64,000 nt of DNA from positions 2,869-66,868 of the forward strand of contig JAAWDR010000030.1 of assembly GCA_022793875.1 (NCBI GenBank), written 5' to 3'. The notes beneath the pieces are model-generated. The model was not told the origin of the DNA, searched no databases, and saw only the letters and a program-made list of their open reading frames with translations. The translations under genes were made by a program, and so were the position numbers. Source of the stretch: Clostridia bacterium. Lineage in GTDB: Bacteria > Bacillota > Clostridia > TANB77 > CAG-508. This document shows, one piece after another, positions 2,667-34,107 of the stretch; within the stretch, counting starts at the first letter, position 1; every line of letters begins with the position of its first letter.

Positions 2667-3029
2667 GTATATGCCTCCTTTTTTATTACGGTTGTACCGT
2701 GTTTGTTATGTGTTTAGTATATTCTAAATATATGTTGATGTCAAGGGATTTTTTTGTACAATTGGGTCGAAAAAATTTTTGAAAGATTTTTTCTATTTTT
2801 CATTATCTATTAATATTTACTAAAAAATTGTCGACTATTAAGATATTATGTAAAAAAAGTGATTAATTAAAAGGCTATTATTATTGTCTTAAAAAGAAAA
2901 AATATATATAATTAAAATAGTGTTGACATTGGTTTCAACAAAATATTAAATTGTATTAAAATGACATAAATGTCTATAGCATAAGTTATAGAAAAATGTG
3001 AAAAATAAACAAAAGAAGGAGAAAAGAAC

Positions 3030-4367
3030 GTGAAAAAATTTAAAAAGGGAACTAATGGGATAACATTAATCGCTTTAATAATAACAATAATAATTTTGAT
3101 ATTATTAGTAGGAATAACAATATCAAGTTTAACAGGAAGTGGATTATTTCAAAAAGCAGAAGATGCTGTAAAAGCAAGTGATAGAGCAAATGTAAAAGAG
3201 CAATTGAAATTAGCAGTAATGGCATCAATAAATGAAGATGGAAATATAGACAAAGATGAATTAAGAAAAGAATTAGAAAAGTTAAAAAATAGAGGTACAA
3301 TAGATAGTTATGAGCAAGGAGAAGAAGATTCGGAGATATTATATACTGCAACAAAAGGAAAAGATTTATATGAAATTAAAGAAAATAGAGAAGTAGAGAT
3401 AAAAGAAAATTATAATAAATTAGATGTAAAAGTAGGAGACTATGTAAATTACACACCAGATAAGCCAACATCAGAACAATTAACAGAATTAAATAGTGAA
3501 ATAAACAACTATTCAGGAAGTTCAGGGCAAAATTTAAGTCAGGCATCAGAAATGAAATGGAGAGTATTAGAAATAGATGAGAAGACTGGAAAACCAACAA
3601 AGTTAATAAGTGGAAAAGAAACAAATGAAAGCTTAAAATTATATGGAGCAAATGGATATAATAATGCAGTATATTTATTAAATAGAGCATGTGAAATATT
3701 ATACAGTAAAAATGGAATAGGCAAAGCAAGAAGTATAACGATAGAAGATTTGGAAGTACATTATAGTGAAGCAGGTAATAATGCAAGAGACACATATAAA
3801 TATAATAATAATACTGCAAATGGAAATAAATATGGAGATATAAGTAGATTTACAGGAAGCAATGCATATTATCCTAAAATATCATTAGAAGAGAACAATA
3901 TAGGAGTAAATACAATGCCATTAGATGAAAATAATAGAAATCCATTAAAAACTGATGGACTAGACATTAGTGAACAAGATAAAATATATACAGGAAATGG
4001 TCAAGCAAATACAAGTGGAATAACATTAAAGCAGACATATTATAGCTTAGGTTCATTATCAGATTTGTCAAAAGCATATGAAGAAAGTATATATTATGAG
4101 CTATTTCATAGTGCAATAAGTGTTTCACATTGGTTAGCATCTCGTAGTGTTATTACATGGGCAGGATATAGTTATTGTGATTTTCGTGCGCGTTATGTTA
4201 ATTATAGTCACCTTAGTGTTCGTAATTTATTTGGTTCTCTTTACTATAATGATGGTTATACAGATAGAATGAGACCAATAGTTTTACTAGAAAATGATAT
4301 TAAAATGGAATGTGAAGGAAAGTTTGAGGACAGTTTATATAGTATATGGAGTTTTGTGAATATATAA
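3030..4367 (+). CDS. prepilin-like N-terminus protein, paralog 1 (C-terminal WLASR...RPIV module)
   Basis: GTG start 8 nt after AAGGAG. N-terminus is MKKFKKGTNG|ITLIALIITIIILILLVGITISSLTG (G then hydrophobic helix, Ala not Glu at +5). Shares a 49-nt identical block with the 4506 gene. Confidence 0.75.
   Translation: MKKFKKGTNGITLIALIITIIILILLVGITISSLTGSGLFQKAEDAVKASDRANVKEQLKLAVMASINEDGNIDKDELRKELEKLKNRGTIDSYEQGEEDSEILYTATKGKDLYEIKENREVEIKENYNKLDVKVGDYVNYTPDKPTSEQLTELNSEINNYSGSSGQNLSQASEMKWRVLEIDEKTGKPTKLISGKETNESLKLYGANGYNNAVYLLNRACEILYSKNGIGKARSITIEDLEVHYSEAGNNARDTYKYNNNTANGNKYGDISRFTGSNAYYPKISLEENNIGVNTMPLDENNRNPLKTDGLDISEQDKIYTGNGQANTSGITLKQTYYSLGSLSDLSKAYEESIYYELFHSAISVSHWLASRSVITWAGYSYCDFRARYVNYSHLSVRNLFGSLYYNDGYTDRMRPIVLLENDIKMECEGKFEDSLYSIWSFVNI
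4128..4262 (+). other. candidate orphan DGR variable region (adenine-depleted patch)
   Basis: About 22% A over about 120 nt versus roughly 45% in the rest of the gene (hand count). Four CGT Arg codons here while flanking Arg codons are AGA. No matching TR in the window. Confidence 0.35.
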
Positions 4368-4505
4368 TAGTTGAGAAAACGTAACAGTATAAGACAATAG
4401 AATATTATGTAAAAAAGTGAACAATAAAAATAGTTGTTTTTATTGTGGCAAAAAATATCTAATTATATAATTATAAAAAAATAAATAGAAGAAGGTGAAA
4501 AAAAT

Positions 4506-5075
4506 ATGGAAAAGTTCAAAAATGCTAATAGAGGTATAACATTAGTAGCATTAGTAATTACAATAATTATATTATTAATTTTAGCTGGTATATCAATATC
4601 AAGTTTAACAGGAAGTGGATTATTTCAAAAAGCAGAAGATGCAAGAACAGAATATAGAGAAGCTGAAAATAGAGAAAACTCAATACTAGGAGAATATGAA
4701 AATTACATTAATAATTTAGGAAATAATTTATCTGATGGAGATAAAATTGTACATTTTTCTATAGATGGAGTAGAGTACTCATGTGAAAAGGGAAAAAGAT
4801 GGAAAGATTTTGTTGATTATGAAGCGTATGGAGGAGATGAAGTAGTAGCTTATTTAGATACATCACATTTTGGTGGTGAACATGATGAGAATCAAAAAAT
4901 ATATTGGATAGATTGGAGTACTTTCGAAGGTGGTGCGATAAGTATGGTTGCTTATTTTGTTAAATTAGACGGGGAATATATTTATTCAAATTCAGAAATT
5001 GTTTCTGGAAAGTATATTATATCTGATGAAGTTACTTCAATTTATAATTATGGAAATTGTTATATAAAATTTTAA
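4506..5075 (+). CDS. prepilin-like N-terminus protein, paralog 2
   Basis: MEKFKNANRG|ITLVALVITIIILLILAGISISSLTGSGLFQKAEDA...ENSILGEYENYINNLGN. The first ~70 codons are near-identical to the DGR target 13848..15035. The C-terminus is unrelated. Confidence 0.75.
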   Translation: MEKFKNANRGITLVALVITIIILLILAGISISSLTGSGLFQKAEDARTEYREAENRENSILGEYENYINNLGNNLSDGDKIVHFSIDGVEYSCEKGKRWKDFVDYEAYGGDEVVAYLDTSHFGGEHDENQKIYWIDWSTFEGGAISMVAYFVKLDGEYIYSNSEIVSGKYIISDEVTSIYNYGNCYIKF

Positions 5076-5090
5076 CAAAATTCTGTTTTT

Positions 5091-5120
5091 AAAAAGCAAG
5101 AAAAAATTTCTTGCTTTTTG
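5091..5120 (+). terminator. intrinsic terminator after paralog 2
   Basis: AAAAAGCAAGAAAAAATTTCTTGCTTTTTG stem-loop with a T-run. Confidence 0.7.
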
Positions 5121-5323: not shown

Positions 5324-8300
5324 ATGTATTTAAAAAGATTAGAATTACAAGGATTCAAATCCTTTGCAGATAAAACAATATTAGAACTAAGACCAGGAAT
5401 AACAACAGCAATTGGACCTAATGGTTCAGGGAAAAGCAATATATCAGATGCAATAAGATGGGTACTAGGGGAGCAAAGTATGAAGTCCCTAAGAGGAGCA
5501 AAATCTTTAGATGTTATATTTGCAGGAACGCAAAACAGAAAATCTTTAGGATTTGCAGAAGCATCTTTGGTGTTTGATAATAGTGATGGGGAATTGCCAA
5601 TTGAATATACAGAGGTAACAGTCACAAGAAAGATATATAGAAGTGGAGAAACAGGATATTATATAAATAAAGTTCCATGTAGATTAAAAGATGTATTAGA
5701 ATTGTTTATGGATACAGGGATTGGTAAAGATGGATATTCAATAATTGGACAAGGTAAAATTGATGAAATTCTAAGTAATAAATCAGAAGATAGAAGACAT
5801 ATTTTTGAAGAAGCTGCAGGAATTGTTAAATATAGAACAAGAAAAGAAGAGTCAGAGAAAAAGTTAGAGCATACAAAATTAAATCTTCTTAGAATAAATG
5901 ATATCTTATCTGAAATTGAAGGGAATTTAGAACCATTGCAAATACAAGCTGATAAAGCTAAAAAGTATTTGAATTTGAGAGAAGAATTAAAAAGTATTGA
6001 GATAGGATTATTTGTATACAATATAGAAAAATACAAAAAAGATTTACAAGAGTTGGTACAATCCATAGATGTAATGACATCTCAATGTAAAGATGAAGAA
6101 GAAAAATTAGAAACAGTAAAATCATTAAAAGAAGAACTAAAGACTAATATTGATAAAATTACAGAAGAGATTGAAAGTATGTCTAATATAGGGTTTGAAA
6201 GTAAAAAACAAATCGAAATATTAAATTCAGATATTAATGTAGCAAAAACAAAGATTGCAAATAATAATGAAAACAGTGAAAGATATGCAAAAGAAATTGA
6301 AGAACAAAATGCTAGAATTACAGAACTAAATGAAGAAATTGAGCAAAAAGAGAGTAAGAAAGATAATTTAAAGAAAAACAAAGAAAAGTTTGAGAATGAG
6401 TTAAAGGAAAAACAAGAAGAATTAGATAAATTAACACAAAAACTTTCTTCAAAAGAATTGGAAATTGAAGGATATAAGCAAACAGTAGAACAAAATACTG
6501 ATAAAAAATATGAGTTACAATCAGAAATTAATACACAAAATGTAAATTATCAAAACTATGAAAAAAGAGAAGCACAAATAAAACAAGAAATTCAAGTTAC
6601 AATTTCTGAATTAGATGGAACAAGACTTAATAAAGAAGATATTTATAAACAATTTACTGAAATTCAAAATAAGAAGAATAAAATTCAAAAATCACTAGAT
6701 GATGTAGCAAAACAAAGAGAAGAAGCAAGTAAAAAAATAAAATCTTATGAGAATGATATAAATAACTTAGCTGGTGAGATGAGAATAAAGGAGTCAAGAC
6801 TTAAATTTTTAATTGAAACAGAAAAAGAAAAAGAAGGATATATAAAAAGTGTTAAATCTTTATTGCAAGATTGTGAAAATGTAAAAGATCTAGGAAAAGG
6901 TATGCATGGAGTTTTAGCAAATATTATAGATGTTCCTGATGACTTAGAAACATCAATTGAAATGTGTTTAGGAGCAAGTCTTCAAAATATAGTAACAGAA
7001 ACTGAAGAAGATGCTAAAAAATTAGTTGAGCATCTAAGAAAAAACAATTTAGGAAGAGCATCATTTTTACCAATTTCATCAGTTAAAGGTAAAAAATTAG
7101 ACAAAATTAAAGGAAATGAAAAAGGTGTAATTGGTATTGCATCAGATTTAGTAAAATACAATAAAAAATATGAACAAATTATATTAAATTTACTTGGTAG
7201 GACAGTTATTGTTGATACAATGCAAACAGCTATTAAAGTAGCAAAACAAAATGGATACATATTCAGAATAGTAACAGTTGAAGGGGATTTAATAAATCCA
7301 TCAGGAGCAATAACAGGTGGTTCTGTTGCTAAGAAAACAGTAAACATACTGGGTAGAGGTAAAGAAATTGAAAAGCTAGAAAAAGAAATCAATAACTTAA
7401 AACAAAAAATTCAAAAACTACAAAATGACAAATTAAATTATGAAGAATCAATTGAAGGAATTTTAGAGTTATCAGCAAACTTAGAAAAAGAAATGCAAGA
7501 AATAGATATTACATATGCTACTGAAAAACAAAAGGTTATTTCAATTGATGAAAATATTGAAAAACTAGAAAAACGTTTAGCTAGATTAAAAGAAGAACAA
7601 CAAAGCCTTGAAAAACAAAAAGAAGAAGCAGTATCTTTAAAAGGAAACATACAAGTAGAAATAAATAAAATTGTTGAGCAAAATCAAGAATTATCAAAAG
7701 TTATAACAGAATTTGCTGAACTTAATAAAGATGACCAAAAATATATAGATGATTTAAATTTTGATATAATAAATTTAAAAATTTCTGTATCATCATTTGA
7801 TGAAAGTGAAGCTTCAATTGAAGAAATTAAAGAAAGAATTAATCAAGAATTAGAAAATACAAAAATAAGTATTGAAAATAAAAAGAACCAAATAGAGCAG
7901 ATTGCAATAGAGAATGAAAAGCTAGAAAAATCAATAAATGAAACATTACAAAAAATTGAAGAAATAAAAGCAGAAGTTCAAAACAGTAGTAATAAAATAG
8001 AAGAATTGAAACAACAAAGAACTGAAAAAAGTGAGACACTTTCAAAACAAGAAGATGAAATTACAGACAAATTCAAAGTAATTGAAGATTTAAAAGGTCA
8101 ACTTGTAAAATTAGATGTAAAGAAAACAAAGATAGAAGAAGATATTAATGAAATTTATAATAAGATGTGGGAAGAGTATGAACTTACACCAAATAATGTA
8201 GGAGAATACCAAAGACCAGAGAATGTTCAATTAACACAAAGAAGAGTAAATAGTCTAAGAAATGAAATTAAAGAACTTGGAAGTGTTAATGTAGATTCTA

Positions 8301-8872
8301 TAGAAGAATACAAAAACTTAAAAGATAGATATGACTTTATGAGTGAACAAAGACTTGATTTAGAAAATACAATGAGCAAACTTAGAAGTGTAATTTCTGA
8401 TATGACACAAATTATGAGAGAACAATTTAAGGAAAAATTTAAAGTAATAAATAAAAATTTTGGAGAAGTATTTGCTGAATTATTTGGTGGAGGAAAAGCA
8501 GAACTTATATTAGAAGATGAAAATAATATACTAGAATGTGGAATAGAAATTACAGTACAACCGCCAGGAAAAAAATTACAAAGCATGACATTGTTGTCAG
8601 GAGGAGAAAAGGCATTTACAGCAATAGCATTATTATTTGCAATTTTAAAAATAAACCCAGCACCTTTCTGCGTATTGGATGAGATTGAAGCTGCTCTTGA
8701 TGATGTTAATGTATTTAGATATGCTGAATATTTGAAAAAATTTGCTGAACATACACAATTTTTAGTAATTACTCATAGAAAAGGAACAATGGAAGTTGCT
8801 GATACTGTTTATGGTGTTACTATGGAGGAAAGCGGTATTTCTAAATTGTTGTCGATGAAAATGTCCCATTAG
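5324..8872 (+). CDS. smc: chromosome segregation protein SMC
   Basis: 1182 aa. N-terminal Walker A GPNGSGKSN, long coiled coils, hinge, and C-terminal LSGGEKA signature plus Walker B FCVLDEIEAALD. Confidence 0.97.
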   Translation: MYLKRLELQGFKSFADKTILELRPGITTAIGPNGSGKSNISDAIRWVLGEQSMKSLRGAKSLDVIFAGTQNRKSLGFAEASLVFDNSDGELPIEYTEVTVTRKIYRSGETGYYINKVPCRLKDVLELFMDTGIGKDGYSIIGQGKIDEILSNKSEDRRHIFEEAAGIVKYRTRKEESEKKLEHTKLNLLRINDILSEIEGNLEPLQIQADKAKKYLNLREELKSIEIGLFVYNIEKYKKDLQELVQSIDVMTSQCKDEEEKLETVKSLKEELKTNIDKITEEIESMSNIGFESKKQIEILNSDINVAKTKIANNNENSERYAKEIEEQNARITELNEEIEQKESKKDNLKKNKEKFENELKEKQEELDKLTQKLSSKELEIEGYKQTVEQNTDKKYELQSEINTQNVNYQNYEKREAQIKQEIQVTISELDGTRLNKEDIYKQFTEIQNKKNKIQKSLDDVAKQREEASKKIKSYENDINNLAGEMRIKESRLKFLIETEKEKEGYIKSVKSLLQDCENVKDLGKGMHGVLANIIDVPDDLETSIEMCLGASLQNIVTETEEDAKKLVEHLRKNNLGRASFLPISSVKGKKLDKIKGNEKGVIGIASDLVKYNKKYEQIILNLLGRTVIVDTMQTAIKVAKQNGYIFRIVTVEGDLINPSGAITGGSVAKKTVNILGRGKEIEKLEKEINNLKQKIQKLQNDKLNYEESIEGILELSANLEKEMQEIDITYATEKQKVISIDENIEKLEKRLARLKEEQQSLEKQKEEAVSLKGNIQVEINKIVEQNQELSKVITEFAELNKDDQKYIDDLNFDIINLKISVSSFDESEASIEEIKERINQELENTKISIENKKNQIEQIAIENEKLEKSINETLQKIEEIKAEVQNSSNKIEELKQQRTEKSETLSKQEDEITDKFKVIEDLKGQLVKLDVKKTKIEEDINEIYNKMWEEYELTPNNVGEYQRPENVQLTQRRVNSLRNEIKELGSVNVDSIEEYKNLKDRYDFMSEQRLDLENTMSKLRSVISDMTQIMREQFKEKFKVINKNFGEVFAELFGGGKAELILEDENNILECGIEITVQPPGKKLQSMTLLSGGEKAFTAIALLFAILKINPAPFCVLDEIEAALDDVNVFRYAEYLKKFAEHTQFLVITHRKGTMEVADTVYGVTMEESGISKLLSMKMSH

Positions 8873-9653: not shown

Positions 9654-10229
9654 TTAACATAAGAAAAATTTTGAAAGTCCAATAAAAATTAGTAAAATTC
9701 CAGATATTAGTGACCATATATTTTCAGGTAATTTATAAAGTTTATTAATATTTTTACCCAAAAGACTACCAATGCTTAAAAAGAACAACTGAAAAATACT
9801 AACTAATATAGGAAATAATCTTAAATTTATATTACTAATACTTCCTCCTATTCCAATACATAAACTATCTAAAGAAAGAGCTATTGCTAAAAATATTGAT
9901 TCTCTTGAATCTATAATTTTAGACTTATCTAAATCTGAAGATATAGGGTTATTGAATATATTTGAAAAATCTTCTTTTAATGCTTGCAAACATATATAAA
10001 CTCCCATAAAAATTAGAATAGAGCTACCAATTAATTTGGTTAAAAAATGAGGAAAAATTGATTCTATAATGTTTCCTAGAAATATTGATATATAAGTTAC
10101 TGTTATAGAAATGATAAATAATAGTATTTTTCCTATTAAAGAAATTTTTGTATTTTTAATTCCATATGTAATTCCGATTCCTAGTGAATCGATGCTACTT
10201 GAAATTGCTAAAATAAAAGAACTTAACAT
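9654..10229 (-). CDS. YtaF/MntP-family (DUF204) membrane protein
   Basis: 191 aa, about 6 TM. Duplicated SxDSLGIG / SLDSLCIGIG half-motifs are typical of the MntP/YtaF family. Confidence 0.6.
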   Translation of the reverse strand: MLSSFILAISSSIDSLGIGITYGIKNTKISLIGKILLFIISITVTYISIFLGNIIESIFPHFLTKLIGSSILIFMGVYICLQALKEDFSNIFNNPISSDLDKSKIIDSRESIFLAIALSLDSLCIGIGGSISNINLRLFPILVSIFQLFFLSIGSLLGKNINKLYKLPENIWSLISGILLIFIGLSKFFLC

Positions 10230-13847: not shown

Positions 13848-15035
13848 ATGAAAAAGCAAAACAAAGGTATAACACTTGTAGCATTAGTAATTACAATTAT
13901 CATATTATTAATTTTAGCGGGAATCTCAATAAGTGCATTAACAGGAAGTGGATTATTCCAAAAGGCAGGAGATGCCAAAAATAGTTATGAAGAAGCAGAA
14001 AGAAGAGAAAATTCAATATTAGGAGAATATGAAAACTATATTGATAATTTAGGAAATGGTGGAAGTACAGGAAGTTTACCATCAAATGCAGAAACAACAC
14101 CATATTTACCAGACTCAAGTAGTAAAATAATAGAAAATTCAAATTTAGAAACAGGATTAGTAGTAGCAGATAAAAATAATAATGAATGGGTATGGATAGT
14201 AGTGCCAAAATCAGTAACAGCAAGTGCAACAACAGATTTAGAAATAGAAAATGCATTACAAACATATGCAACAGATTATAGAAGTTCTTGGACAGATGAA
14301 TGGTATGAAGGATGTGGATTAACAGAAGCACAATATAATGAAAATAAAAGTAAAATGTTGCAAAGTATAAAAGCAAATGGAGGATTTTGGATAAGTAGAT
14401 ATGAAGCAGGAATAGAAGGAAGTGTGCAAAATCCATCTTTAGCAAGAACAGAGCCAGGAGAACTAACAACATCGTCACCAAAGGCAGTAAGTAAGCCAGA
14501 CCATATACCATATAATTGGGTAACATGTAGTCAAGCACAAAATCTAGCAAGTCAAATGAGTCCAGAGACAACAAAAACAAGTAGTTTATTATTTGGAATA
14601 CAATGGGATTTAGTGTGTAAGTACCTAGAGGGAAAAGACGGATTAACAACAGCAGATATAAATGAAGATAGTTCAAGTTGGGGAAATTATAGTAATAATT
14701 CATTAAATATAACAAGTGCAAAAGCTATGGGAGCAGAATTCAATACATCAACATATCAACTAGGAGAGTGGCAAAATGTTACTGAGAAACCAGCAAATAA
14801 ACTAAGTCTATTAACAACAGGAGCATCAATAGGAACTAAGAAGATGAATATATATAATTTTGCAAGTAATGAAGCAGAATGTACATTAGAAAAGGCGACC
14901 AGCAGCAGCGATCCATGTAGCATTAGGGGAGGCATTTACAGCCTTACAGGTTCCGACTATCCAGCTTCTGCTCGCAACGACTATGATCCTTCTAGCGGTA
15001 ACGACGTCATTGGTTTGCGCGTTTCACTTTATTAA
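13848..15035 (+). CDS. DGR variable (target) protein: prepilin-like N-terminus plus FGE/C-type-lectin-fold domain
   Basis: N-terminus MKKQNKG|ITLVALVITIIILLILAGISISALTG. SUMF1/FGE-like motifs GFWISRYEA, NWVTCSQAQNLA, LLFGIQWDLVCKYL, NIYNFASNEAECT, SIRGG, VIGLRVS. The last 47 codons match the TR. Confidence 0.9.
   Translation: MKKQNKGITLVALVITIIILLILAGISISALTGSGLFQKAGDAKNSYEEAERRENSILGEYENYIDNLGNGGSTGSLPSNAETTPYLPDSSSKIIENSNLETGLVVADKNNNEWVWIVVPKSVTASATTDLEIENALQTYATDYRSSWTDEWYEGCGLTEAQYNENKSKMLQSIKANGGFWISRYEAGIEGSVQNPSLARTEPGELTTSSPKAVSKPDHIPYNWVTCSQAQNLASQMSPETTKTSSLLFGIQWDLVCKYLEGKDGLTTADINEDSSSWGNYSNNSLNITSAKAMGAEFNTSTYQLGEWQNVTEKPANKLSLLTTGASIGTKKMNIYNFASNEAECTLEKATSSSDPCSIRGGIYSLTGSDYPASARNDYDPSSGNDVIGLRVSLY
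14892..15034 (+). other. DGR variable region (VR)
   Basis: Gap-free alignment to 16536-16678 (offset 1644). Mismatches fall almost exclusively at TR adenines. Confidence 0.9.
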
Positions 15036-15294: not shown

Positions 15295-15549
15295 ATGGCA
15301 TTTAGTAAAATGATAGAATTATTACAAAAGAAAGATGAAGGAAAAATAATACTAGTAAATGCAGGAGCATTTTATATAGCAAGAGGAAAAGATGCAGAAC
15401 TAAATACACAAAGAATATATCTAAGAATAATGAAAAATAACAAATGGATAGATGAAAGAAAATTCAGAATAGTAATGGAGCAAATATATGAAATAGGAAA
15501 AATACTAGGAGGACTATATAAACACTATGCCAAAAACAATCCGAAATGA
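15295..15549 (+). CDS. DGR accessory protein candidate (MutS-domain-I-like N-terminus, Avd-like C-terminus)
   Basis: 84 aa. GGAGG lies 9 nt upstream. KIILVNAGAFYIARGKDAE resembles the MutS N-terminal GDFYE..G.DA motif. C-terminal EQIYEIGKILGGLYKHY resembles an Avd helix. Overlaps the RT start by 23 nt. Confidence 0.55.
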   Translation: MAFSKMIELLQKKDEGKIILVNAGAFYIARGKDAELNTQRIYLRIMKNNKWIDERKFRIVMEQIYEIGKILGGLYKHYAKNNPK

Positions 15550-16462
15550 ATTTGAAAAGCATTTAACATATGAAAAATTAATGGAAGCACACAAAAAATC
15601 AAAAAAAGGAAAAGGATACAGAAAAGAAATAATAGAATTTAACTTAAAACAAGAAGAATATATAATATGGTTATTAGAACAATTAAAAACACAGAAATAC
15701 AAACATGGGGGATATACAACATTTTATGTAACAGAACCAAAATTAAGAAAAATAGAAAAATCAAGATACATAGATAGAATAGTACATAGATGGGTAGTAG
15801 ATAACTTTTTAGAACCAGCATTTGTACCACAATTTGTAAATACATCATTTGCATGTCTAAAAAATAAAGGAATGCACAAAGCATGTTTATATGTTCAAAA
15901 CACAATGAAGCACTGTAAAAACATATGGAATGAGCATTATATACTAAAAATGGATGTATCAAAATATTTTGATACTATAGATAAAAAAATATTATTAAAA
16001 ATTATAGAAAAGAAAATAAAAGATAAAAAGCTATTATGGTTATTAAATGAAATAGATCAATTTATAAAACACAAATTACATATAAAATATTATTGTAGAT
16101 ATTTAGATGACAGTATAGTAATAGTAAAAACAAAGCAAGAAGCAAAAGATGCATTAATAAAAATACAAAAATATTTAAAAGAAAATTTAGAGCTAGAATT
16201 AAATAAAAAAACACAAATATTTAAAAATAAACAAGGAGTAAACTTTTGTGGATATAAAATAAATGAATATAGACTAAAAATAAGAGACAAAGGAAAAAGA
16301 AAATTAAAGAAAAAAGTAAAAAAATTAAAAGAACAAATAAAATTAGGGAAAATTACAAGCAAAGAAGCGCATAAATATTTAGCAGGCCATATGGGATATA
16401 TAAAATATGCAAATACAAGAAACTTAGAAAATAAATTATTTTATTTAGAAAGTGAACAATAA
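15527..16462 (+). CDS. DGR-type reverse transcriptase
   Basis: RT motifs FYVTEPKLRKIEKSRYIDRIVHRWV (1), SFACLKNKGMHKA (2), ILKMDVSKYFDTID (3), YCRYLDDSIVIV (5), NFCGYKI (7). The cognate TR/VR pair is adjacent. Confidence 0.9.
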   Translation: MPKTIRNEFEKHLTYEKLMEAHKKSKKGKGYRKEIIEFNLKQEEYIIWLLEQLKTQKYKHGGYTTFYVTEPKLRKIEKSRYIDRIVHRWVVDNFLEPAFVPQFVNTSFACLKNKGMHKACLYVQNTMKHCKNIWNEHYILKMDVSKYFDTIDKKILLKIIEKKIKDKKLLWLLNEIDQFIKHKLHIKYYCRYLDDSIVIVKTKQEAKDALIKIQKYLKENLELELNKKTQIFKNKQGVNFCGYKINEYRLKIRDKGKRKLKKKVKKLKEQIKLGKITSKEAHKYLAGHMGYIKYANTRNLENKLFYLESEQ

Positions 16463-16535: not shown

Positions 16536-16678
16536 AAAACGACCAACAGCAACAATCCATGTAGCAATAGGGGAGGCAATTACAACAATACAGGTTCCAA
16601 CAATCCAGCTTCTAACCGCAACAACAATGATCCTTCTAACAGTAACGACAACATTGGTTTACGCGTTTCACTCTAATA
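16536..16678 (+). other. DGR template repeat (TR)
   Basis: AAY-rich. In the VR frame it reads TTNSNNPCSNRGGNYNNTGSNNPASNRNNNDPSNSNDNIGLRVSL*. Lies 74 nt downstream of the RT stop. Confidence 0.9.
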
Positions 16679-33579: not shown

Positions 33580-34107
33580 ATGAAAGAAAATAAAGGAATA
33601 ACAATGGTAGCATTAGTTATAATAATTATATTATTATTAATATTAGTGGGAGTATCAACAGGCACAGGAGGAAATTTAATAAAACAAACTAAATTAGAAA
33701 ATTTGAAAACAAATATGTTATTAATAAAAGTAAAAGCAAAAGAATATGTAGAAAATGCAAATTTTAATTTAGGAACAACATTTGAAAAGTTAACAGATGA
33801 AACTGAAAAGAATAATAGAATACAAAAAGCAAGAGAGGAATTAAAAGGAGAAGATGTTACAAGTACTATATCTTCATATAATATTAATATAAATGATAGT
33901 TCTGAAAATGTATATTATTATAAATTAGATACACAGACTTTATTAAATATAGGATTATCAAATTTAAAATCAGATGAAAAAGAAGGTTGGTATATAATCA
34001 GATATGATATAGTGAATGCTGAAGTTGAAGTATATAATTCAAAGGGATTTGAAAGTAATAATACTAAATATTATTCATTAAGCGATTTACAAAATATTGA
34101 AATATAA
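33580..34107 (+). CDS. prepilin-like N-terminus protein, paralog 4
   Basis: Internal ATG after the GAAGGAG RBS gives MKENKG|ITMVALVIIIILLLILVGVSTG. The ORF-track start at 33517 adds an implausible Ile/Lys-rich leader. Confidence 0.7.
   Translation: MKENKGITMVALVIIIILLLILVGVSTGTGGNLIKQTKLENLKTNMLLIKVKAKEYVENANFNLGTTFEKLTDETEKNNRIQKAREELKGEDVTSTISSYNININDSSENVYYYKLDTQTLLNIGLSNLKSDEKEGWYIIRYDIVNAEVEVYNSKGFESNNTKYYSLSDLQNIEI

Follow-up and report, generated by a model that had tools for sequence, protein, structure and literature searches.

Type IV pilin-type heads without Glu5 on four genes of a Clostridia bacterium: a probable lineage-specific family of modular surface proteins

Four genes in a 64-kb stretch of DNA from a Clostridia bacterium (GCA_022793875.1, contig JAAWDR010000030.1, positions 2,869 to 66,868 of the forward strand; ~26% G+C; hereafter the window) open with the same N-terminal segment, a short basic leader ending in Gly followed by a hydrophobic helix, which we term the head. 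These genes, named for their start positions in the window (3030, 4506, 13848, and 33580), probably encode proteins of the type IV pilin type (class III signal peptide), members of a very large family that is specific to this lineage of uncultured gut Clostridia and lacks the glutamate at mature position 5 (Glu5), a reading to which we assign a probability of roughly 0.6. Given that the pilins encoded in the pilus operons of relatives carry the same head with Ala at this position (Ala5), and given the specificity of the head, the window genes are best read as modular pilins or pilin-anchored surface proteins.

The shared head in the window and in pilus operons of relatives

A six-frame scan of the window (regular expression G-[I]-T-[LM]-[IV]-A-L) recovered exactly four open reading frames (ORFs) with the head motif, all on the forward strand, and these are the four that the first-pass annotation of this DNA had picked out by their (K/N/R)G|IT(L/M)(I/V)AL(I/V)I start:

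3030..4367, + strand: gene 3030, 445 aa; leader M1-G10, helix 11-65, small alpha/beta module to ~125, unannotated C-terminal domain 138-445
4506..5075, + strand: gene 4506, 189 aa; leader M1-G10, one long predicted helix to ~73, small C-terminal module of unknown fold
13848..15035, + strand: gene 13848, 395 aa; head and helical extension as in 4506, Gly/Ser linker, FGE-sulfatase-type domain; target of a diversity-generating retroelement (DGR)
33580..34107, + strand: gene 33580, 175 aa (pilin size); more divergent head GITMVALVIIII; alone upstream of rnhB

Each head consists of 5-10 mostly basic residues ending in (K/N/R)G, followed by ITL(I/V)AL(I/V)ITIIILLIL(A/V)G, and the ~20 hydrophobic residues directly after the putative cleavage site form the N-terminal half of a long helix (predicted from sequence and, for 3030 and 4506, by AlphaFold2 (AF2) models). 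All four proteins share the short basic leader with Gly at -1, as well as Ile at +1, Thr at +2, and Ala at +5, where the same annotation had correctly remarked on Ala in place of Glu. The most divergent of the four heads is that of 33580 (ITMVALVIIIILLLILVG), a protein which also gave a weak ComGD-like match (E 0.0038). The Pfam N_methyl model (PF07963 / IPR012902) aligned over the heads of 4506 and 13848 at E ~1e-3 and had no match in 3030 or 33580. All four genes are dispersed among housekeeping genes, outside pilus loci.

A 47-position profile built from the four window heads and searched against 1.84 billion representatives (clusters at 50% identity) matched 27,334 cluster representatives at E<=1e-3 and 3,046 at E<=1e-10. 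In each of the best 150 of the 27,334, the alignment begins between residues 1 and 24, and the head is near-invariant across the whole set while the remaining sequence is unrelated. Leaders in the family vary from a few to tens of residues (median 9-10), and conservation starts exactly at the Gly. On sequence grounds, the head is a specific, positioned module and not a generic hydrophobic anchor. Domains to which family heads are fused include Laminin_G_3 (PF13385), F5_F8_type_C (PF00754), LRR_5 (PF13306), Flg_new (PF09479), and FGE-sulfatase (PF03781). The "four-member family" of the first-pass annotation therefore holds for the window only; beyond it, the family comprises tens of thousands of cluster representatives.

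Among 485 collected members, a sample biased toward the query, Gly occupies -1 in 96%, Ile +1 in 99%, and Ala +5 in 96%, with the non-Ala remainder at +5 being Ser, Ile, Thr, Val, Gly, or Asn, and Glu in none. Together with the operon pilins described below (98/98 with Ala5), this N-terminal profile search answers the earlier question of whether Ala at +5 is a clade feature: it runs through the clade and is not peculiar to the four window genes. The family members examined carry no product name and, as the head falls below the Pfam/InterPro pilin signature, the set of 27,334 representatives is invisible to current surveys of pilins and modular pilins. A literature search of incomplete coverage returned no paper on the head motif or on Glu5-less major pilins.

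The head recurs on pilins inside type IV pilus operons of relatives. We analyzed 79 loci from different species-representative metagenome-assembled genomes (MAGs), fetched by a PilD-like profile from among the matches listed, so that this sample of operon pilins is independent of the head query and free of its bias. The sources are uncultured Clostridia, Clostridium sp., or Bacillota from human, mouse, rabbit, chicken, and ruminant guts (among the matches listed). In locus L082, the order is a PilM-N fusion, a PilO-like protein, a 156-aa protein, three pilins (159-168 aa), a PilD-like protein, two minor pilins, PilB, PilT, and PilC, with Pfam support for PilN (9e-5), the PilD-like protein (A24_N_bact, 4.7e-30), PilB and PilT (T2SSE, 1.4e-93 and 9e-45), and PilC (T2SSF, 1.1e-26). 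This pilMN-pilO-pilin-pilD-like-pilB-pilT-pilC operon recurs in 69-79 of the 79 loci. In two related MAGs, PilB is split over two overlapping reading frames (L061:13063-14506 and L083:3116-4568).

Just upstream of pilD lie one to three pilins in 74 of the 79 loci, and all 98 of these pilins carry Ala5; the operon pilins with the head are 127-200 aa long. The two minor pilins downstream of pilD have Ser (73), Asp (62), Thr (2), or Glu (1) at +5. Judged by its residues, the window head is the same segment with which the main pilins of the lineage's operon begin. A profile of the operon pilins, compared with PDB sequences, found as its best matches the class III heads of MshA (E 0.069) and geopilin, which are sub-significant but in register at the cleavage Gly (MKRQQG|FTLIELV vs. 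mknnkG|ITLIALV). Many assemblies carry both dispersed head genes and the operon, as seen from common assembly prefixes among the matches listed, with up to four head genes per 20-kb locus and several such loci per MAG, again among the matches listed.

The PilD-like protein of these operons keeps the Cys-rich, zinc/methylase-type N-terminal domain of A24 enzymes (A24_N_bact), and its candidate for the second Asp motif is not conserved in L081. A scan of 2.6 Mb of the relatives' DNA for GxGD[..]K located a separate 250-aa membrane A24 peptidase in L067, L071, and L075, and a partial copy in L038, so that it is present in at least three of the related MAGs. This stand-alone enzyme matches PF01478 at 2-5e-18 with both Asp motifs and a GxGDVKL motif, has no A24 N-terminal domain, and occurs (as a fragment) together with the operon under the MAG prefix CANQTU01.

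L082:10534-11349; also L058, L061, L072, L081, L083, and L095-L173 near 8001-8813: PilD-like protein without detectable peptidase domain
L075:19152-19904 and L067:964-1716: stand-alone A24 peptidase

A PilD-like protein without a detectable peptidase domain and a separate peptidase without the N-terminal domain suggest that the two PilD activities are split between two genes in this lineage. Given the canonical A24 peptidase in relatives, a plausible enzyme for head cleavage exists in the lineage.

Reuse and probable exchange of the 5′ cassette

Gene 4506 is a segment mosaic of 13848 and 3030. Genes 4506 and 13848 are homologous through ...EYENYI(N/D)NLGN (33 nt differences in 192 nt; 8 of 64 residues differ), sharing the head plus a ~40-residue helical extension, and are unrelated from the Gly/Ser-rich linker onward. 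Genes 3030 and 4506 differ at 17 of 111 aligned nt and share an identical run of 49 nt, which has P ~3e-4 under random placement of the differences. Three segments, counted from the Gly codon, were compared:

3118..3166 (in 3030) and 4594..4642 (in 4506), + strand: identical 49-nt tract (codons ISSLTGSGLFQKAEDA), read as a gene-conversion patch
Segment A, 63 nt: 7 differences between 4506 and 13848, 16 between 4506 and 3030
Segment B, 48 nt: 10 differences between 4506 and 13848, 1 between 4506 and 3030
Segment C, 81 nt: 16 differences between 4506 and 13848, 48 between 4506 and 3030 (no better than random)

Gene 4506 thus resembles 13848 on either side of a patch identical to 3030, the signature of a short gene-conversion tract, and since 13848 differs at 10 positions in the same patch, the patch is not under general nucleotide constraint.

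The likeness of 3030 and 4506 continues upstream of the coding sequence. The 15-mer ATATTATGTAAAAAA occurs exactly at 2843 and 4402, in both cases followed by (A)GTGA, and the exact 12-mer core of this upstream box is present at these two sites alone within the window. The features of the two upstream regions, and one 3′ of gene 4506, are as follows:

2843..2862, + strand: upstream box ATATTATGTAAAAAAAGTGA of gene 3030, its start 64 nt before TATAAT
2884..2912, + strand: promoter-like site P1 (TTGTCT-17-TATAAT), homologous to the site upstream of 4506
2923..2952, + strand: promoter-like site P2 (TTGACA-18-TAAATT), found ahead of 3030 and the P0191 gene (L001) but not ahead of 4506
4402..4420, + strand: upstream box ATATTATGTAAAAAAGTGA of gene 4506; homology with the relative L181 starts at 4397
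4421..4446, + strand: 10-bp A/T-rich hairpin (ACAATAAAAA / TTTTTATTGT), its 3′ arm supplying a TTGT -35-like element (read from sequence)
4466..4471, + strand: TATAAT -10 hexamer of 4506, 64 nt from the box start (read from sequence)
5090..5120, + strand: terminator-like hairpin and T-run, 3′ of gene 4506

From box to TATAAT, a distance of 64 nt in both genes (TATAAT at 2907-2912 and 4466-4471), a stretch of ~75 nt is homologous between 3030 and 4506, with a TTGT-type -35-like element 17 nt ahead of TATAAT in each; an extra segment downstream of TATAAT in 3030 holds P2. The full-length 3030-type upstream leader also precedes the head gene P0191 on mouse-gut contigs L001-L003, and the hairpin is kept directly 3′ of the box in L181 (~5915-5940) and L001 (~9800-9830). 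Upstream of the 233 head genes in the collected loci, the exact 12-mer core occurs six times in the orientation of the gene, corresponding to four independent places vs. ~0.3 expected at the background rate, and not once in the reverse orientation. Given this excess, the box is real and linked to the head-gene family, and ATATTATGTAAAAAAGTG may serve as a regulator site or an upstream promoter element. The hexamer assignments are tentative, as promoter-like matches are common in AT-rich DNA (34 found in the window vs. 20 expected).

Read on the minus strand, the 4421-4446 hairpin and the T-run of the box would resemble a terminator. We set this interpretation of the box aside, given that no minus-strand gene ends there; it is further disfavored by the missing hairpin at 3030 and by the fixed 64-nt distance of the box to a plus-strand TATAAT.

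In the relative L181 (GCA_948436985.1), the 4506 ortholog lies at the same place, upstream of smc, and the 3030 gene is absent. Synteny between the window and L181 covers the 4506 ortholog, smc, MntP, and a P-type ATPase, and the homology begins at window position 4397 (L181:5894), five bases before the box. The place of gene 3030 is taken in L181 by a ClpB-like gene and an 80-aa ORF. Given that synteny breaks exactly at the upstream box, with other genes in its place in L181, 3030 can be regarded as a variable insertion at this site.

Much of what the first-pass annotation had claimed about cassette structure is upheld by these comparisons: the 49-nt block and the sequence common to the 5′ regions of 3030 and 4506 are both present at the stated positions and exceed chance, and 4506 and 13848 are homologous through NLGN and then diverge fully, although "near-identical" was slightly generous for 33 differences in 192 nt. 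Its proposal of a 5′ cassette joined to different C-terminal domains also stands, with the cassette reaching further upstream than proposed so as to include the ~75-nt promoter block. The paralogs would diversify by reuse and exchange of this cassette (promoter box, leader, head, and sometimes the helix extension), probably through duplication and short gene conversion. Read in this way, the window offers a view of how an adhesin repertoire may grow: copies of a promoter-plus-head cassette receive gene-conversion patches and acquire new binding domains, one of them diversified further by a DGR.

C-terminal modules and the retroelement

The gene with the DGR is 13848, which has >7,000 full-length homologs, all with the same head and some with PF03781 (FGE-sulfatase) on record. 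The variable repeat (VR) at its C-terminal end and the template repeat (TR) form a 139-nt pair of 84% identity, in which 20 of 22 mismatches fall at TR adenines, and an Avd-like accessory gene and a reverse transcriptase sit between them:

14896..15034, + strand: VR, in 13848, C-terminal end
15295..15549, + strand: Avd-like accessory gene (weak bAvd / DivGenRetAVD matches)
15527..16462, + strand: reverse transcriptase (RVT_1)
16540..16678, + strand: TR of the 139-nt TR/VR pair

The first-pass suggestion that one of the modules is DGR-diversified is therefore confirmed for 13848, by the mismatches at TR adenines and by the adjoining reverse transcriptase and Avd-like gene.

Gene 3030 has 656 homologs, and no Pfam domain was found in this family. 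Its AF2 model (predicted local distance difference test, pLDDT, 89) shows helices at 11-32 and 38-65, a further helix at 75-87, four strands within 93-125, and a separate domain at 138-445 (window 3441-4364), for which the pLDDT is mostly above 90. In the model, this domain may represent an undescribed fold used as a variable binding domain. Members of the family end in YWLASR...(L/F)RPV(V/I)SL, and close homologs differ mainly there. At L180:10001-15396, four tandem 3030-family paralogs are ~90% identical in nucleotide sequence, except for ~180 nt near the 3′ end at 63-67%. The C-terminus of 3030 thus resembles a variable region, but neither the window nor the examined part of the L180 contig yielded a template repeat for it; the TR in the window is unrelated to 3030, and no reverse transcriptase was found in the same part of L180. 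A TR/VR pair beside a reverse transcriptase was thus present for 13848 alone and was not seen in the window for 3030.

The C-terminal module of 4506 has only a handful of homologs, and its AF2 model (mean pLDDT 51) gives helix 8-73 at moderate confidence and is unreliable beyond the helix. As in modular pilins, the head is followed in the window proteins by a domain not specific to pilus biology, namely PF03781 in homologs of 13848 and the separate domain 138-445 in 3030.

Weighing the readings against known systems

As modular pilins, the window proteins would be cut after the Gly by an A24 prepilin peptidase and presumably methylated, with the hydrophobic helix holding the protein in the membrane and docking it onto the PilB/PilC/PilMNO machinery for incorporation into pili. 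At the pilus or next to it, the C-terminal module would then be exposed as a head for binding ligands, namely the DGR-diversified lectin-type domain of 13848, the second, variable-looking domain of 3030, and the small modules of 4506 and 33580.

Several observations weigh against this reading. Position 5 is Ala in 4/4 window proteins, and Glu5 is regarded as needed in bacterial type IV filaments for the docking of subunits and for charge neutralisation (PMC10191384). The N_methyl scores of 4506 and 13848 (18.3-18.6 bits) lie below the gathering cut-off of 21.2, 13848 and 4506 apparently consist of a helix and linker alone ahead of their C-terminal modules with no globular pilin module, and a Foldseek search with the whole 3030 model against PDB and BFVD returned no pilin or other significant match. 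No pilus machinery gene was found in the 64-kb window, and the operon PilD-like protein of relatives has no Peptidase_A24 match even at E<=10. Finally, head genes are so numerous in each genome, and some so large, that most cannot all share one filament.

Some of these points would be accommodated if the same head and processing served proteins that are no pilus subunits, being anchored in the membrane by the helix or joined in short pseudopilus- or bindosome-like assemblies, with the head acting as a general export and anchoring tag. The very large family with its highly diverse C-terminal domains, the many copies per genome in relatives (up to four heads per 20-kb locus and several loci per MAG, among the matches listed), the apparent lack of a globular pilin module in 13848 and 4506, the missing canonical docking salt bridge (PMC10191384), and the archaeal precedent of the Sulfolobus bindosome (PMC3047682) all fit this explanation. 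However, the identical head on small operon pilins beside pilB, pilT, and pilC implies that a genuine retractile filament is made from this N-terminus, the large domain of 3030 is preceded in the model by a small, putatively pilin-like module, as in Streptococcus sanguinis PilB (PMC8179133), and the surroundings of the dispersed genes showed no second ATPase/platform pair dedicated to them; we hold this explanation to be rather unlikely. Less probable again is that the head is an uncleaved N-terminal signal-anchor (type II topology) inherited by paralogy, with only a superficial likeness to prepilins and no dependence on pilus machinery. While Ala at +5, Ile at +1, the sub-threshold N_methyl score, and the scatter of the genes among housekeeping genes outside pilus loci would agree with such an anchor, conservation starts exactly at the Gly although leader length varies, the head is near-invariant over 27,334 cluster representatives with an unrelated remainder, the same head is found on 98/98 pilins inside pilus operons, and the class III cleavage site lines up in both the PDB and the Pfam matches.

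The idea that the common N-termini are chance likenesses of low-complexity hydrophobic stretches, which an AT-rich genome (~26% G+C) dominated by I, L, K, and N codons might produce, is hardly credible and is refuted by the motif scan, the 49-nt block, and the head profile search: matches are limited to four ORFs across six frames of 64 kb, the exact block has P ~3e-4, profile E-values extend down to 1e-23, and homology reaches into the promoter. Hydrophobic bias alone, with no blocks of nucleotide identity, was the doubt that the first-pass annotation had raised against itself, and both the 49-nt block and the upstream box were found.

Beyond the modular-pilin reading lies a more speculative extension, which we consider possible but doubtful. 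The pilus of these gut Clostridia, which have small genomes, may have been rebuilt around the Ile1/Ala5 N-terminus, which would now be a general display tag by which each genome routes dozens of unrelated surface proteins, DGR-hypervariable lectins among them, through one machinery, with the tag existing as a portable promoter-plus-head cassette that recombines with new domains. If true, bacteria would have their own equivalent of the archaeal bindosome, together with a filament able to assemble in the absence of the salt bridge between Glu5 and the N-terminus.

Compared with DGR variable proteins of the C-type-lectin/FGE-type fold, such as Bordetella phage Mtd and Treponema TvpA, 13848 likewise has its VR at the C-terminal end with adenine-specific TR/VR mismatches; the 13848 target, in contrast, sits on a pilin-type N-terminus, and 3030 has a VR-like hypervariable C-terminus with no TR in the window and no Foldseek match. 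In the Sulfolobus bindosome, sugar-binding proteins carry class III signal peptides (PMC3047682), and its substrates, like the proteins proposed here, are functional surface proteins with a pilin-type signal that depend on a type IV filament-like assembly system (PMC3047682). The bindosome is archaeal, however, with its own BasEF ATPase/platform pair, and no such pair was seen near the dispersed head genes. The heads of bindosome substrates are not known to carry a conserved Glu5.

Our observations agree with the published concept of the modular pilin, a pilin module that carries grafted functional domains (PMC8179133), here with a head that lacks Glu5. S. sanguinis PilB (pilin and vWA) and PilC (pilin and lectin) resemble the window proteins in having a class III signal/pilin module, a short linker, and a grafted ligand-binding domain (PMC8179133, PMC9934059), and modular pilins, as here, show many kinds of grafted domain on one head type, with a proposed role in adhesion via display on the pilus (PMC8179133, PMC9934059). 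However, PilB and PilC have canonical heads with Glu5 and IPR012902, whereas the window family has Ala5 and falls below the signature threshold, and consequently would be missed by InterPro-based surveys. The window genes also differ from the S. sanguinis modular pilins in being dispersed rather than placed in a pilus operon, in that two of the four have no recognizable globular pilin module, and in that one is diversified by a DGR.

The operon of the relatives matches the type IVa pili of monoderm Firmicutes (Clostridioides difficile, Clostridium perfringens, and S. sanguinis) in comprising pilM/N/O, pilin(s), pilD, minor pilins, pilB, pilT, and pilC. It departs from them in its 98/98 major-type pilins with Ala5, its minor pilins with mostly Ser or Asp at +5, and its PilD-like protein without a detectable A24 peptidase domain, the canonical A24 peptidase being encoded elsewhere.

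In known systems, Glu5 forms a salt bridge to the N-terminus of the next subunit, and only a tip-capping minor pilin is without it (PMC10191384, PMC9934059). GspK, PilK, and the PilA tip minor pilin of S. sanguinis lack Glu5 like the window heads, and are still processed and assembled to cap the tip (PMC10191384, PMC9934059). While the tip-pilin systems have one capping subunit without Glu5, in this lineage this applies to the whole pilin repertoire, including the presumed major subunit, so that its filament must be held together differently. Glu5 has been treated as a near-rule for the assembly of bacterial type IV pilins; a widespread gut lineage in which all presumed major pilins carry Ala5 beside pilB, pilT, and pilC would show this rule to be dispensable, and constitutes a natural system in which to ask what replaces Glu5.

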